Below, one piece after another: positions 37,198 through 43,302 of a stretch of DNA of 64,000 nt. The translations under genes and the position numbers were made by a program. Location: NCBI GenBank assembly GCA_020279385.1, contig GCA_020279385.1_4762.1, one strand, 5' to 3'. How positions within the stretch are numbered: position 1 is the first letter of the stretch; each line of letters opens with the position of its first letter. The notes beneath the pieces are model-generated. The model searched no databases and was not told the DNA's origin. It saw only the letters and a list, made by a program, of their open reading frames with translations. Origin of the DNA: a phage.

Positions 37198-37524
37198 TTA
37201 GAAAGAAACAGTTTTCAAGAAATCCAGATTTTCAGTACCGAAAACAGAAAAGTAGTGTTTTCCTTTTTCGGTTTTAGAGAAAGCGATTGTCTTCTCTACA
37301 TGGTGACGGAAGCCAGACAGACGATCACCCAGGTCAAGGCGGCAAGCGTAAGTAGTGCCGTTTTCGAAAGTAACCTCGATTTGAGTTTTGTCATATTCGC
37401 TTTCATAGGCTTTTGCTGCCGCTTCCAGTGCTTTACGCTCGAAGTCTTCGAAGTGGAATACTTCGTTTGCGTTAGCGAATACAGAAGATTCAGAGAAGAT
37501 AACTTTAACAGATACTGGTTTCAT
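37198..37524 (-). CDS. Hypothetical protein
   Basis: 108 aa; RBS TAAGGAGTATCAAA. Confidence 0.55.
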   Translation of the reverse strand: MKPVSVKVIFSESSVFANANEVFHFEDFERKALEAAAKAYESEYDKTQIEVTFENGTTYACRLDLGDRLSGFRHHVEKTIAFSKTEKGKHYFSVFGTENLDFLKTVSF

Positions 37525-37621
37525 TTTGATACTCCTTAGTGTGTTTCGTTTCGATGAGGTAACTATACTCTAGCCACCTCATTAAGTTTTAACAAAAAGT
37601 GCTATTTTCTAGTTTAATGTA

Positions 37622-37765
37622 TCAATCCCAGACAATCCAAACCTGTATAGAAGACTTTGCATCTGGGTTATCTTTAAGGATTTTATCAATGGCATTGTTT
37701 AGCTTCTCTCTTGTTTTGAACAAACCAACAATACAACCCATTGCTTGTAATTTAAAAACTGGCAT
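37622..37765 (-). CDS. Small ORF (47 aa)
   Basis: Promoter 37799-37827, SD GGGGGT, ATG 37765; MPVFKLQAMGCIVGLFK... Confidence 0.3.
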   Translation of the reverse strand: MPVFKLQAMGCIVGLFKTREKLNNAIDKILKDNPDAKSSIQVWIVWD

Positions 37766-37798
37766 TTTACCCCCATATCTTCTCGTTTCGATGGGTGT

Positions 37799-37827
37799 AT
37801 TATGCTATACACCATCTCGTATGTCAA
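37799..37827 (-). promoter_or_regulatory. Early promoter TTGACA-N17-CATAAT
   Basis: GGTGTAT/ATACACC palindrome around -10. Confidence 0.5.
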
Positions 37828-37834
37828 CAACTTT

Positions 37835-38023
37835 TTAGTCTTTTTTCATAATTTCTAGAGCAGTTTCTACAGCACCTTTCCAACCCTCCCACATAATGGA
37901 CATAGTAATGAAGTTAAAGCACCCACAGGAATCAACCTTTTTAGAGATAAACCATTCTACAAACGCTTCGCTCATACCATGCTCTTTAGCGGATTCGCGT
38001 AATTGTTCAATTTGGTCTTCCAT
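37835..38023 (-). CDS. Hypothetical protein
   Basis: 62 aa; RBS GAGGTGATACT. Confidence 0.45.
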   Translation of the reverse strand: MEDQIEQLRESAKEHGMSEAFVEWFISKKVDSCGCFNFITMSIMWEGWKGAVETALEIMKKD

Positions 38024-38045
38024 AGTATCACCTCAACAATTAACG

Positions 38046-38240
38046 TTATTCAAACTCAAACGGTTTATTCAACCTACTGTAAAAGTACATATAACAAGCA
38101 TAGTTTTGTTTTGGCTGTACCGTATCAGATAGACACGCTTTTACAGCCTCGCGGTCCGATGGATCTACACCCTCAGCTTTAAGTAATGCTAAAATCTGGT
38201 TATAGCGTACTCTTAGTTGTACTAATGGTTTATCCCCCAT
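38046..38240 (-). CDS. Hypothetical protein
   Basis: 64 aa. Confidence 0.45.
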   Translation of the reverse strand: MGDKPLVQLRVRYNQILALLKAEGVDPSDREAVKACLSDTVQPKQNYACYMYFYSRLNKPFEFE

Positions 38241-38249
38241 ATTACCCCC

Positions 38250-38471
38250 TTATAGTTGATCAGCGATGTAAGCGTGACAAGCGCGGAGTTTCATTAATGC
38301 ACTACCTTTCACTTCGCCTACGATGTTCATAACTTCTAAGCGGTCGGATGGATTCATCTTAGAGCACCAGATCTGGTTAGCCAATTCCAGTTTACTCATA
38401 TTTGGTTCCATCTCAAACAGTTCGCGCTCAAAGTCGATAATTTCTTTTGCTGCGTCTTTAAAGTTAATCAT
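38250..38471 (-). CDS. Hypothetical protein
   Basis: 73 aa; GGAGAATCAAA RBS; promoter 38501-38529. Confidence 0.5.
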   Translation of the reverse strand: MINFKDAAKEIIDFERELFEMEPNMSKLELANQIWCSKMNPSDRLEVMNIVGEVKGSALMKLRACHAYIADQL

Positions 38472-38500
38472 TTTGATTCTCCCGTTTCGTTGATGGTTGT

Positions 38501-38529
38501 ATTGTAGGGGAGTTATCCTCCCCTGTCAA
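38501..38529 (-). promoter_or_regulatory. Early promoter TTGACA-[GGGGAGGATAACTCCCC]-TACAAT
   Basis: Palindromic spacer. Confidence 0.5.
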
Positions 38530-38537
38530 CACTTTTA

Positions 38538-38723
38538 TCAGAAATATGCAATATAGTTTGCCAGTCCTACAGAGTCATCATTCGGCATTGCTTTTACTGC
38601 CAGTTCAAACCCTGCTTCAACTTTCTGTTTAGCGGATTCTTCGTTATAACCCCAGATTACCAGAATAGCTACTACGTTTTCTTTGCTTACTTCTTTCAGT
38701 GCTTTAGTGATGCGACGTGCCAT
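38538..38723 (-). CDS. Hypothetical protein
   Basis: 61 aa; GGAGAATCAAATT RBS; promoter 38770-38798. Confidence 0.5.
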   Translation of the reverse strand: MARRITKALKEVSKENVVAILVIWGYNEESAKQKVEAGFELAVKAMPNDDSVGLANYIAYF

Positions 38724-38769
38724 AATTTGATTCTCCGTTTAAGAAAGTGTGTTTCGTTTCGATGGGTGT

Positions 38770-38798
38770 ATTATGCTATAGGCCGGATCTGGTGTCAA
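38770..38798 (-). promoter_or_regulatory. Early promoter TTGACA-N17-CATAAT
   Basis: Directly downstream of terminator 38822-38851. Confidence 0.5.
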
Positions 38799-38821
38799 CA
38801 ACTTTTTTAAAAAAATTTTAG

Positions 38822-38851
38822 GCAATAAAAAAGCCACTCCGAAGAGTGGCT
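38822..38851 (-). terminator. Intrinsic terminator
   Basis: GCCACTC-TTCG-GAGTGGC hairpin plus UUUUUUAUU. Confidence 0.7.
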
Positions 38852-39001
38852 TATAGGGAAGGTAGCGAATCTTCCTTGTCTCCAACCTGCTAGCGGCCTA
38901 GCAAGTGAATGCTTTAGCGTACCGGATAGCCCACATACGCTGTAATAAATGCGGCTAGGTGACGTCCAAATCATTCTAACCGCGCTGTCTTTAGTTCACT
39001 A

Positions 39002-39220
39002 TTATTTATATCGCTTTCTCTCGCGACGTTTTTTATCTTCTTCCTTGATAGAGTTAAATGCATCAAAAAGACACATGACACTAATAATAAACATAACCGT
39101 ATTTTCTACGATATCCCACGGCTTCGCATCAGTACAGATCCCCCAAACGGTAAGAAATGCAAATAAGGCAGAAGAGATCACAAGCATGATACTTGCTAAG
39201 ATATAAAAAGTCATTTTCAT
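39002..39220 (-). CDS. Small hydrophobic protein
   Basis: 72 aa. Confidence 0.4.
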   Translation of the reverse strand: MKMTFYILASIMLVISSALFAFLTVWGICTDAKPWDIVENTVMFIISVMCLFDAFNSIKEEDKKRRERKRYK

Positions 39221-39411
39221 GGTTTTACCTCAATTCTTCGATATTCATCACACATCCACGCAGTAAGCAAGAATCCCAACACATAAGCAACAAAATACGT
39301 TAATGCTTCTTCTGGTTCGGTGCTATGCGTCATCATCAGACTAGCGAGAAAGGTCTTAACAATTACATTTAAAATAATTAGCCACGCAAATAATTTCATC
39401 GTTTGCCCCAT
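39217..39411 (-). CDS. Small hydrophobic protein
   Basis: 64 aa. Confidence 0.4.
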   Translation of the reverse strand: MGQTMKLFAWLIILNVIVKTFLASLMMTHSTEPEEALTYFVAYVLGFLLTAWMCDEYRRIEVKP

Positions 39412-39635
39412 TTCGGTCGAGTCTTTTCAAACTTATACATTCCGTAACAATCTCGAATCATCCACGTAACAAGAGCACCAGTCAACACAGACAATACACA
39501 GAAGAAGTAAAACGGTCCGGTTGCATTATCAACATGAGCAAGCCAGGTAAAGAAAACACATGCTAAGAATGTAAAGATCATCATAAAGCACAAGAAAGCG
39601 AAATATTTTATACTACTCATAGCGCCACCATACAA
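39396..39635 (-). CDS. Small hydrophobic protein
   Basis: 79 aa. Confidence 0.4.
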   Translation of the reverse strand: MYGGAMSSIKYFAFLCFMMIFTFLACVFFTWLAHVDNATGPFYFFCVLSVLTGALVTWMIRDCYGMYKFEKTRPKWGKR

Positions 39636-39723
39636 AAGATCATAAGAAAACCCAACGCAATAAGAATTGCATCAAATTTAGTGAACTCCGGTCCACCTAT
39701 CAACATCATTCGTTCTATTTCGT

Positions 39724-39966
39724 TCATAGCGTACAAAGCCATTTAAAAGCACCACATAAAGCGAGCAGAATACTAGGTATAAACGAGACCATAACAAGTT
39801 TGCAAAAATCATCTAAGGTAACACCGGAATAGCTACCTACTGTAACAACACCGATCATCAGACACAGAAAGAAAACAAATGCAATCATAAACAAAGTATT
39901 GCTAAACAGTTTAGTGATCATTAGACACCCCACGACGATCAATTTCAAAAACTTTTTTATCATCAA
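39724..39966 (-). CDS. Small hydrophobic protein
   Basis: 80 aa; start uncertain. Confidence 0.4.
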   Translation of the reverse strand: MMIKKFLKLIVVGCLMITKLFSNTLFMIAFVFFLCLMIGVVTVGSYSGVTLDDFCKLVMVSFIPSILLALCGAFKWLCTL

Positions 39967-40114
39967 CGAAGCATGTCACAACTGCCTCGTTGACTTCCGC
40001 AAATTGTTGTGTCACCCACTTAAGGTCAGAGCGAAACAATGTTCTATTAATAACAAATGTTTTACCGCTCTTATCCTTACCCATAAATTTTGCTTTAACC
40101 ATATCCAATTCCAT
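39911..40114 (-). CDS. Hypothetical protein
   Basis: 67 aa. Confidence 0.4.
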   Translation of the reverse strand: MELDMVKAKFMGKDKSGKTFVINRTLFRSDLKWVTQQFAEVNEAVVTCFVDDKKVFEIDRRGVSNDH

Positions 40115-40123
40115 ATTATCACC

Positions 40124-40282
40124 TTATTTGCTAATCGCTAAACCCAATCCGAAGAGAGCACCCGATGCTACAGTATACCCGAAAGTTTCAAAGGCAGTAA
40201 AGATATCTAAGCCACCAGCTAACAGAGTTGCAGTAAACAGAGTACCAGCTACGAACATAAAAGTTTTACCGATGAATTTCAT
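40124..40282 (-). CDS. Small hydrophobic protein (52 aa)
   Basis: Promoter 40314-40342, SD GGAGAATCAAA, ATG 40282; MKFIGKTFMFVAGTLF...; below ORF-track cut-off. Confidence 0.35.
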   Translation of the reverse strand: MKFIGKTFMFVAGTLFTATLLAGGLDIFTAFETFGYTVASGALFGLGLAISK

Positions 40283-40313
40283 TTTGATTCTCCTTTCGTT
40301 TGTTTGTGGGGGT

Positions 40314-40342
40314 ATCTTACTACCCCCGTTTCATGTTGTCAA
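40314..40342 (-). promoter_or_regulatory. Early promoter TTGACA-N17-TAAGAT with GGGGGTA/TACCCCC palindrome
   Basis: Upstream of 40124-40282. Confidence 0.45.
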
Positions 40343-40348
40343 CTATTT

Positions 40349-40726
40349 TTAAGAATATTTTACTTCGTCTACAATGTCTTTCATGACATTGATTTCCATT
40401 CCGGTCAGAACACGTTGGAACATGTGCTGCACATACGCTTTCAGGTATTCATTTGATGGCTTGCTATCGAAAGTCTTTTTAGTGTAGTAGTCATCACCGA
40501 AAGCTACTGTAATTATATTTTCGTCGTCGTTCCAAGCGATATAAGCAAATTTGCCGTTATCCCAGAAGCGAGCACTAATTGCTACTTTTGTTGAATCGAA
40601 TCCTACTTCGCTGTGAGATTCAAGAACTACTTGCGTGCCAGTTTCTTTATGAATGTAGTAGCGGGATACTAAGTCAAAGTTACGGGTGTAGTGACATTCG
40701 AATTTATCTTTAAACATCATCATCAT
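40349..40726 (-). CDS. Hypothetical protein
   Basis: 125 aa; promoter 40764-40792. Confidence 0.55.
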   Translation of the reverse strand: MMMMFKDKFECHYTRNFDLVSRYYIHKETGTQVVLESHSEVGFDSTKVAISARFWDNGKFAYIAWNDDENIITVAFGDDYYTKKTFDSKPSNEYLKAYVQHMFQRVLTGMEINVMKDIVDEVKYS

Positions 40727-40763
40727 TTTGATTCTCCTAAGTGTGTTTCGTTTCTATGTGTGC

Positions 40764-40792
40764 ATTATGCTATAGTCGTTTATGGTTGTCAA
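40764..40792 (-). promoter_or_regulatory. Early promoter TTGACA-N17-CATAAT
   Basis: Directly downstream of terminator 40798-40828. Confidence 0.5.
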
Positions 40793-40797
40793 CAACT

Positions 40798-40828
40798 AAA
40801 AACAAAAAACCCCGAAAAATTTTCGGGG
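40798..40828 (-). terminator. Intrinsic terminator after 57B
   Basis: CCCCGAAAA-UU-UUUCGGGG hairpin plus UUUUUUGUUUUU. Confidence 0.65.
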
Positions 40829-40835
40829 TATAAAA

Positions 40836-41306
40836 TTACAGTTTGGTCGTCCACTCCAGGTCTAGATCTTCGACATACTCATGAGATCGGACAATCTCTA
40901 AATCGAACTCTAGGTCAGTGCCAAATTTACGCGCACCAACATCATAAGAAAGCGTGATATGCGGTACATATTCAGGATAATCCCACGTCGCACCTAAAGC
41001 AGTGCCGATATCGTGTCTGAATTGCATGTAGTCGCTTTCAAATGCCAGCACAAGCGCATTAGTACCGGATTGAGTTTCAAACACTTTCAGATGGCATAGA
41101 GAGCCTAAGAACTTCTCCCCTTCTTCTGGGATAAACGGAACATAGACACGAGAATATAAGATAGTGCTATGCAGTTTATCACGAGGAACGGCATTAGGCA
41201 GATCGTAGAACTCCTGCAATTTTTCAATGCGGTCTAGTGTATCCTCAGTGAATTTAACCGCCGCATATGTACCTTTAACGGATTCTCTAAACGGGGTCAT
41301 AATCAA
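40836..41306 (-). CDS. 57B: 2H phosphodiesterase, Acb1/gp57B-like (anti-CBASS candidate)
   Basis: 156 aa; two HxTx motifs (KLHSTILYS, PHITLSY); sits directly upstream of 57A as T4 57B does. Confidence 0.7.
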   Translation of the reverse strand: MIMTPFRESVKGTYAAVKFTEDTLDRIEKLQEFYDLPNAVPRDKLHSTILYSRVYVPFIPEEGEKFLGSLCHLKVFETQSGTNALVLAFESDYMQFRHDIGTALGATWDYPEYVPHITLSYDVGARKFGTDLEFDLEIVRSHEYVEDLDLEWTTKL

Positions 41307-41569
41307 GCCTCCGTGATCAGTTCTACTTCCTCTTCTGCGTCTTCCGCTGCTTTGTCTTTAGGGAGAAGTGCTTTCACTTCTTCGACAATAGCATCAAGGG
41401 AAACAGTGCCGTTTTCGTCTGGCTGAATACCCAGAATGCGTACCAGTTCCATCAATACACGCTCACGATCTTTCAGTTGGCCTTCTAAGAATGCGGCCTT
41501 TTCTTGAGTGTCAAACAGACGTACTTTCAGGACATTAATCATTTGTTCATGCTGATTGGACATATTCAC
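41303..41569 (-). CDS. 57A: Tail-fibre assembly chaperone gp57A
   Basis: 88 aa acidic coiled-coil protein at the 57A position; LDAIVEEVKAL resembles T4 gp57A. Confidence 0.75.
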   Translation of the reverse strand: MNMSNQHEQMINVLKVRLFDTQEKAAFLEGQLKDRERVLMELVRILGIQPDENGTVSLDAIVEEVKALLPKDKAAEDAEEEVELITEA

Positions 41570-43047: not shown

Positions 43048-43302
43048 ATGACAGAAGACATTTTGTTAAAACTCTATGATCGTCTGGATAACGAATTAGC
43101 AACATTGCGGGGTGAAGTTCTCTATTTGTCTAAATGCAATACAGATCTGCTTAAGCAGATTGCAGAAAGGGATGATCAAATAAAATCCCTTTCAGGTGCA
43201 TTACGTGATCGCGACAAGGCATTAGAGATTTTACAGCGTGTTACCAATAAGGAAGAATTAAAAGACTTCTTACATGGTTATGCTCATGCTATCGATCTAT
43301 AA
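43048..43302 (+). CDS. Hypothetical coiled-coil protein
   Basis: 84-aa plus-strand ORF with TAATAAATA late-promoter-like motif 27 nt upstream and terminator hairpin downstream. Confidence 0.5.
   Translation: MTEDILLKLYDRLDNELATLRGEVLYLSKCNTDLLKQIAERDDQIKSLSGALRDRDKALEILQRVTNKEELKDFLHGYAHAIDL

Follow-up and report, generated by a model that had tools for sequence, protein, structure and literature searches.

The subject of this report is a 150-nucleotide (nt) non-coding interval on the minus strand of a 64,000-nt stretch of phage DNA (NCBI GenBank assembly GCA_020279385.1, contig GCA_020279385.1_4762.1), which we call the window at its full length. An earlier note, made from the letters alone, had singled this interval out as a possible stable small RNA. 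A 1.1-kb query covering the locus retrieved 59 GenBank phage records, all of them Krischvirus with 97.5–99.6% identity, which identifies the window as part of an RB49-like, T4-type coliphage of this genus. The RB49 locus is a minus-strand run of small early genes, flanked by the tk/vs/regB/endolysin block on one side and by dmd-57B-57A-1-3 on the other; the counterpart neighbourhood in T4 comprises e.1–e.8, the transfer RNA (tRNA) cluster, rnaC, rnaD and ipI. The features which define the interval in the window are the following:

40342..40314, minus strand: early promoter of the dmd operon, the start of the operon whose 3′ end is the interval
39002..39220, minus strand: open reading frame (ORF) of 72 amino acids (aa) for a predicted membrane protein, last gene of the early operon that includes dmd; TAA stop codon at 39004..39002
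39003..39010, minus strand: exact T4-type late-promoter motif TATAAATA, overlapping the last codons and the TAA stop of the 72-aa ORF
38852..39001, minus strand: body of the non-coding element, 150 nt; interpreted as the 3′ untranslated region (UTR) of the early dmd operon or as the main part of a candidate small RNA
38822..38852, minus strand: intrinsic terminator, consisting of a 9-bp stem with five G-C pairs and a TTCG loop (38852..38831) and a T6 tail (U6 in the RNA) reaching to about 38822; common to the upstream operon

Judged from its sequence, we hold it to be an even call that the interval is a functional, structured non-coding segment of minus-strand RNA at the 3′ end of the early dmd operon, which is released as a small RNA of about 175 nt. 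It constitutes a credible but unproven candidate phage small RNA, unrelated to the RNAs C and D of T4.

The interval does not encode a protein. Only two ORFs cross it, one of 55 aa (38974..38807) and one of 48 aa (38885..38739), both on the minus strand and both continuing through the stem and T-run of the terminator and through the early promoter beyond. In relatives, insertions and deletions of 1–2 nt (at the apex of hairpin H2, in the 5′ tail, after hairpin H4 and in T or A runs; the hairpins are described below) shift the frame of both ORFs, and due to these frame-breaking changes the interval is considered not coding. No ORF with a frame conserved across the relatives was found in it, and the statement of the earlier note that 38852–39001 contains no credible ORF is borne out. 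That a small protein was overlooked by gene callers is hardly believable: the two ORFs do overlap the interval, and an ORF of 47–48 aa is annotated in FL15, UPWr_E1 and Delraymugoa, but besides the broken frames in many relatives and the course of the ORFs through terminator, T-run and promoter, neither possesses a convincing conserved Shine-Dalgarno sequence with a start codon. In the GenBank records of FL15, SFHK24, UPWr_E1 and Delraymugoa, “hypothetical proteins” of 33–48 aa are annotated which span both the terminator hairpin and the early promoter; one of them lies on the opposite strand. These are almost certainly artefacts of gene callers, and a practical outcome of the analysis is that spurious ORF annotations are flagged in several GenBank records.

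At its 5′ edge, the interval is bounded by TATAAATA. According to the T4 late-promoter rule, this motif occupies positions −13 to −6 (PMC1524935), so that the copy at 39010..39003 predicts a transcription start (+1) at the G at 38997 and an RNA of approximately 175 nt. By sequence, the locus has the form of a T4-type late unit, with TATAAATA at −13 to −6 in front of a transcribed segment. The exact octamer is found four times in the 64 kb compared to about eight copies expected from composition, and each of the other three copies is located 25–35 nt upstream of a Shine-Dalgarno sequence and an ATG, i.e., in the classical position of a late promoter. At the interval, TATAAATA is kept in 26 of 27 distinct copies of the locus and deleted in one, the metagenomic contig L017. 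A late-promoter motif on the minus strand had been noticed before and is indeed present, but it lies at 39003–39010 and not, as had been given, at 39005–39020.

The 3′ edge is formed by a stem-loop rich in G+C with a U-run behind it on the transcribed strand, as is characteristic of a Rho-independent terminator, and no other minus-strand terminator exists within 37500–40500. The same terminator was predicted in RB49 by Nolan et al. (2006) with a score of 100, and it is annotated in the GenBank records of GEC-3S, G2248 and G5211. Its stem is invariant among the relatives, in which only the loop changes. The strong terminator previously seen at 38822–38851 thus holds up, with its 9-bp stem and T-run. 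In FL15 (PP400778.1), the tetraloop reads CGAA (equivalent to window positions 38840–38843), while it is TTCG in all other copies and the stem is the same. CGAA is the exact reverse complement of TTCG, and the change looks like an inversion of the hairpin loop by template switching.

Bacterial small RNAs derived from 3′ UTRs can be transcribed from an internal promoter, e.g., DapZ and MicL. The motif at the 5′ edge, the lack of an ORF and the operon terminator with its U-tail at the 3′ edge together give the interval the layout of this class. The similarities comprise a promoter inside the 3′ end of the upstream coding sequence, the Rho-independent terminator of the parent operon with its U-tail, a length of 100–200 nt, and the option that the RNA is produced by processing of a longer mRNA. 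However, the match concerns architecture only, as the promoter predicted here is a late promoter of the phage gp55 type in the genome of a lytic phage and not a promoter of a host sigma factor.

The G+C content of the interval is 48% compared to a mean of 40%, which corresponds to the 97th percentile of 150-nt windows, and its minimum free energy (MFE) of −45.4 kcal/mol is lower, that is, more stable, than that of 99% of the 150-nt segments of the window. When the terminator is included, comparison to dinucleotide shuffles yields z = −3.05. The MFE structure of the single sequence and RNAalifold on 21 distinct copies concur on hairpins H1, H2 and H3 and on the terminator, but differ in the fourth element. 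The complete model contains four hairpins upstream of the terminator:

38951..38983, minus strand: hairpin H1, 8 + 4 bp, GCGGUUAG..UGAU/GUCA..CUAGCCGC; one loop change (C>U)
38916..38941, minus strand: hairpin H2, a 7-bp lower stem, an internal mismatch and a top of 2–3 bp
38881..38909, minus strand: hairpin H3, with the core CUUGCUAG-GCCG-CUAGCAGG at 38886..38905 and a weak 4-bp extension
38857..38875, minus strand: hairpin H4, GGAAG/CUUCC with a 9-nt loop, preceded by the invariant purine-rich single strand GGUUGGAGACAAGG

The short palindromes which the earlier note had listed, GCGTA...TACGC and CTAGCGGCCTAG, correspond to H2 (38916–38941) and to the core of H3 (38886–38905), respectively. 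An alternative to H4 is a closing helix of 9 bp, in which the 5′ end (UAGUGAACU) pairs with the H4 loop (AGAUUCGCUA) and of which only five pairs would be left if the RNA starts at 38997. H4 and the closing helix are both invariant in their pairing, and either fold is compatible with the data.

The substitutions found among the relatives agree with the four-hairpin model. In 983 pair cells, 99.9% are standard pairs, whereas the proportion drops to 26–47% when the partners are slid by 1–3 columns. At the predicted paired sites, eight substitution events were observed, and seven of these keep pairing in the minus-strand RNA (binomial P for at least seven of eight = 0.002–0.035, depending on the assumed share of transitions). 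The eighth is a C>A in kaaroe/OZ035808, which breaks a pair in the weak extension of H3; the H3 core is invariant except for one loop change. All 12 pairs of H1 never vary, and H4 shows a single A-U>G-U change. H2 is the sole helix with informative variation: four of its pairs vary and pairing is kept in all of them. One pair is compensatory (G-C in 18 sequences, G-U in one and A-U in two), and the other three occur as A-U/G-U, G-C/G-U and G-U/A-U/G-C. The remaining substitutions are all situated in loops or linkers. Altogether, the covariation evidence for the fold is real but thin.

Read on the plus strand, the same paired-site changes result in C-A mismatches. Since pairing is kept on the minus strand only, an RNA transcribed from this strand is indicated rather than a palindrome acting at the DNA level. 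This bears on the idea that the interval is a DNA element, namely an array of binding sites, a signal for replication or recombination, or a part of a PeSL (promoter-early stem-loop) recombination cassette. The interval adjoins a promoter/terminator cassette of the PeSL type, such cassettes mediate recombination in these phages (PMC2839356), and several metagenomic contigs break just downstream. We nevertheless rate a DNA-level function as very improbable: PeSLs have many copies, whereas the interval is single-copy in the window; the tolerated G-U wobbles are valid only in minus-strand RNA and would be mismatches in a DNA cruciform; and the contig breaks are located in the PeSL promoter, outside the interval.

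The apex of H2 (38926–38933) is hypervariable. Seven of its eight columns vary across the 27 copies, with replacements of several bases and insertions or deletions of 1–2 nt, and it is more variable than nearby four-fold synonymous sites although it lies inside an otherwise nearly invariant element. Possible explanations are a mutational hotspot at the tip of the hairpin and diversifying selection on the site.

Conservation in related phages had been named beforehand as a check on the proposal, and the interval was present in every relative found. It occupies the same place in 59 of 59 GenBank Krischvirus records with 96–100% identity, which is uninformative alone because the genus is so tight, and in approximately ten further metagenomic contigs, all with the same gene order. 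More divergent copies were obtained via the neighbouring 72-aa protein, using IMG/VR and the contigs encoding its matches in a collection of 5.8 billion proteins, as well as by a 21-mer search in metagenomes. Compared to the window, the upstream genes of the metagenomic contigs differ at 10–20% of nucleotides and the interval at 3–7%. Judged by these sequences, the region is mosaic, and the boundary in divergence is close to where the 72-aa ORF ends. Two features downstream of the interval are required for a comparison of site classes:

38770..38798, minus strand: near-consensus PeSL-type early promoter TTGACA-17-CATAAT, which restarts transcription for the 61-aa DUF7421 gene; outside the element
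38723..38541, minus strand: 61-aa DUF7421 gene (ORF61), the next real gene downstream of the interval

Variable sites were counted in the same 22 full-length sequences for every class:

Interval, all positions: 18 of 150 variable
Interval outside the 8-nt H2 apex: 11 of 142 variable
Four-fold degenerate sites of the downstream 61-aa gene: 10 of 28 variable
Four-fold degenerate sites of the upstream 72-aa gene (ORF72): 12 of 18 variable
Promoter region (−35 to −10), about 60 nt away: 11 of 31 variable
Codon positions 1 and 2 of the downstream gene: 3 of 122 variable

Without the apex, the interval is less variable than the four-fold sites of ORF61 (Fisher P = 3e-4) and than the promoter region (P = 2e-4), and the whole interval is less variable than the four-fold sites of ORF72 (P = 1e-6). 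Since the interval is thus less variable than neutral sites on both sides, purifying selection is indicated.

Several observations weigh against a functional small RNA. The downstream promoter, the 5′ UTR and the 61-aa gene are about as conserved overall as the interval. The interval is thus not far more conserved than its surroundings as a whole, and the argument for constraint depends on the comparison with synonymous sites and with the promoter spacer. All copies belong to one genus with at least 94% identity, so that the phylogenetic depth is small. Further, the MFE of the interval is unremarkable in comparison to its own dinucleotide shuffles (z = −1.6), and much of the stability of the fold is accordingly due to composition. 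Covariation comes from one hairpin with one truly compensatory pair, and shuffle controls are marginal (6 of 500 for the score, 122 of 500 for double-sided pairs); the pairs of H1, H3 and the terminator do not vary, and those of H4 nearly not, so that these helices contribute no covariation signal. At the 5′ edge, the metagenomic contig L017 (MAVA01000028.1) lacks the 14 nt GATATAAATAATAG (equivalent to window positions 38998–39011), which comprise TATAAATA and the stop codon, but keeps the remainder. It also carries a +2 change in the upstream A-run, and its 72-aa ORF ends in another frame at a TGA. L017 may be a natural variant that lacks the late promoter, or else the product of an assembly error; due to its missing TATAAATA, the late promoter may not be the sole or essential source of the RNA. 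In addition, Nolan et al. list 17 late promoters of RB49, none of which is at the interval, and a search with blastn-short did not find complementarity of at least 13 nt to a target elsewhere in the window.

Some of these points would also fit neutral leftover DNA, for instance the remnant of a deleted gene, which only looks conserved because of recent kinship and its location in a low-divergence block of the mosaic. Identity among the copies is 94–100%. The upstream genes diverge by 10–20%, but the adjacent promoter, 5′ UTR and 61-aa gene match or exceed the interval in overall conservation, a pattern that fits a recombination boundary close to where the 72-aa ORF ends; the z-score against self-shuffles is weak as well. 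However, the interval is 3–5 times less variable than the four-fold sites of the downstream gene and than the promoter spacer approximately 60 nt away, its changes sit in loops and linkers or keep pairing, and the raised G+C content is maintained. Moreover, no protein or DNA homologue of an ancestral gene was found in phage records, E. coli genomes and plasmids. We therefore regard the neutral explanation as improbable.

The main rival is a 3′ UTR acting purely in cis, whose hairpins would shield the mRNA of the dmd operon from 3′-5′ exonucleases, set the efficiency of termination or provide a processing site. We consider this doubtful. Physically, the interval forms the 3′ end of the operon transcribed from the early promoter at 40342..40314, with which it has the terminator in common, and L017 retains the element in the absence of the late promoter. 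In a variant of this explanation, a single-stranded GGAG followed by an A-rich tract is a candidate RegB/S1-like processing site: GGAG and then ACAAGGAAGA occur in a linker which is unpaired and does not vary, RB49 encodes RegB in the vicinity, and PMC3014915 sets out the rule for RegB sites. On the other hand, protection of the 3′ end is normally supplied by the terminator hairpin alone, other operon ends of the region have no structured tail of 150 nt, and in GEC-3S the terminator-promoter junctions follow directly after the stop codon. An exclusive function in cis also leaves unexplained why TATAAATA is conserved at the exact 5′ edge in 26 of 27 copies.

Returning to the small RNA, the proposed molecule would span from about 38997 to 38824 and would consist of the four hairpins followed by the intrinsic terminator of the operon and its U-tail. 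It would probably arise as a primary transcript late in infection, initiated at the TATAAATA within the last codons of the upstream gene, or as a 3′ fragment left by decay or processing of the early operon mRNA; both routes may coexist. A target RNA or protein would most likely be contacted via the invariant unpaired segments CAUUUAUU and GGUUGGAGACAAGG and the H4 loop with CCUUCCCUAUA, whereas the H2 apex would be free to vary. The accumulation of a discrete RNA, an active late promoter and a function of the RNA in trans are inferred.

Databases were searched for hints of a relationship to known RNAs. ARAGORN detected no tRNA or transfer-messenger RNA gene in the whole window, Rfam at gathering thresholds yielded no match in the 64 kb, and no tRNA match was obtained from Rfam at E-values up to 10 within 38700–39150. 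Thus, the covariance-model and tRNA scans which had been suggested as a check returned neither an Rfam family nor a tRNA in the window. In E-value mode, weak sub-threshold matches to EF3314_EF3315, RNAI and STnc100 appeared with 20–24 bits against thresholds of 47–100; the best of these reaches 23.9 bits against a gathering threshold of 100, and the alignments are driven by the terminator hairpin. These RNAs resemble the element in a generic series of hairpins ending in a terminator, but they are not the same family. The covariance model of the element itself detected nothing in the T4 e-57B region (11 kb, 66000–77000). In the window and in 18 kb of RB49 it detected only the element, apart from one match at 43093–43192 on the plus strand of the window (11.6 bits, rough E-value of 0.09). 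This match lies within an ORF equivalent to ORF130 of RB49, between genes 3 and 2, and is regarded as chance.

Outside the genus, searches were equally negative. No relatives beyond Krischvirus were found using blastn against 50,697 phage records, protein and DNA scans of IMG/VR and the 21-mer scan of metagenomes. An exact 21-mer of the element is absent from 185,579 species genomes, and when 5,426 E. coli genomes and 72,556 plasmids were examined by blastn for an origin from host or plasmid, the generic terminator hairpin was the sole part to match. The interval is single-copy, with no paralogue or repeat in the window, and is consequently not one of the repeated PeSL cassettes. It also does not conform to the definition of a PeSL, a motif of approximately 100 bp which combines a sigma-70 promoter with a stem-loop and is present in many copies. 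Mimicry of a CRISPR repeat was rejected only indirectly, by the lack of any Rfam model of a CRISPR direct repeat in the E-value scan and by hairpins that do not look like E. coli repeats, and not by a direct comparison of sequences. Mimicry of a type III antitoxin was rejected on a single point, namely that there is no repeated copy of the interval in the window.

The analogy to RNAs C and D of T4, drawn in the earlier note from the location in the e-ipI region, persists with regard to position only. Like rnaC and rnaD (species 1 and 2), the element is small and non-coding, lies on the same strand as the adjacent early genes and is located in the variable region from endolysin/vs to 57B-1-3 (PMC3014915, PMC12685909). 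In contrast, the T4 RNAs are encoded beside tRNA-Arg, where the tRNA cluster ends, and this phage has no tRNA genes, as was described for RB49 (PMC1524935). With regard to sequence, local alignment to rnaC (139 nt) and rnaD (119 nt) revealed no similarity when compared to shuffles (z = 0.0 and −0.9, respectively). RNAs C and D are cut out of transcripts of the tRNA cluster. RB49-type phages lack this cluster and hence have none from which similar RNAs would be processed; instead, the element possesses a promoter motif and a terminator of its own, whereas rnaC has a tRNA-like arm at its 3′ end. Descent from RNA C or D, or from a tRNA gene of an ancestral cluster, could be imagined from the shared broad neighbourhood between the lysis/vs region and 57B-1-3. 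At the sequence level this is effectively refuted, as ARAGORN and Rfam detect no tRNA, rnaC and rnaD give neither an alignment nor a covariance-model match, and the element has no tRNA-like T-arm such as rnaC carries at its 3′ end.

We did not find a report on the transcriptome or the small RNAs of Krischvirus or RB49 in the literature, and publications on PeSLs cover the promoter/stem-loop cassettes and not the sequence of the interval (PMC2839356). Based on sequence comparison, the element therefore presents itself as an undescribed candidate small RNA which is restricted to one genus. A review from 2010 stated that no trans-acting regulatory RNA had been functionally characterized in T4-type phages (PMC3014915), and as late as 2025 the function of RNAs C and D was still given as unknown. 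A convergent adaptive single-nucleotide polymorphism in rnaD has recently been reported for a T4-like phage evolved on a semi-permissive host (PMC12685909). A second, unrelated and genus-wide non-coding RNA would offer an independent, simple system for studying what such phage RNAs do. Its appeal would be a clean architecture from promoter to terminator beside known anti-defence genes in the RB49 group, members of which serve as candidates for phage therapy (e.g., the Krischviruses GEC-3S and Phi1).

Two of these anti-defence genes are found upstream of the element (window approximately 39900–41500) and were also seen in the metagenomic contigs L009 and L016. Dmd (PF17587) is encoded in the same operon. 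The gene labelled “57B RNA ligase” in RB49 and T4 is located one transcription unit further upstream, past a terminator, and its product matches the Pfam family Acb1 (PF23474, anti-CBASS). dmd encodes an antitoxin against RnlA/LsoA. Because dmd shares the operon, 57B of the Acb1 family is nearby and the H2 apex is hypervariable, one may speculate that the element is an RNA-based factor for host range or anti-defence, which we hold to be quite improbable. The conserved scaffold would then bind or decoy a host nuclease, a toxin or an RNA chaperone, and the apex of H2 would be the specificity determinant, diversifying under pressure from different E. coli hosts.

The immediate surroundings of the element show some further peculiarities. 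The homologues of the 72-aa ORF upstream are confined to Krischvirus. Downstream, the terminator together with TTGACA-17-CATAAT constitutes a terminator-promoter junction like those of the PeSL cassettes of RB49 and Phi1 (PMC2839356, PMC4122927); the cassettes themselves are repeats of about 100 bp with many copies per genome, whereas the interval lies upstream of the junction, is single-copy and contains no PeSL motif. In the promoter (38765–38795), the −35 and −10 hexamers are invariant, but few stretches of the locus vary as much as the 17-nt spacer. The ends of several metagenomic contigs fall just past this promoter, which is consistent with assemblies failing at a repeated PeSL cassette. 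The 61-aa DUF7421 protein encoded next shows 72–80% identity to proteins encoded by numerous T1-like siphoviruses which infect E. coli and Shigella and have genomes of approximately 50 kb (vojen, tunus, JMPW1, pSf-2 and others), which points to gene exchange between T4-type and T1-type coliphages.

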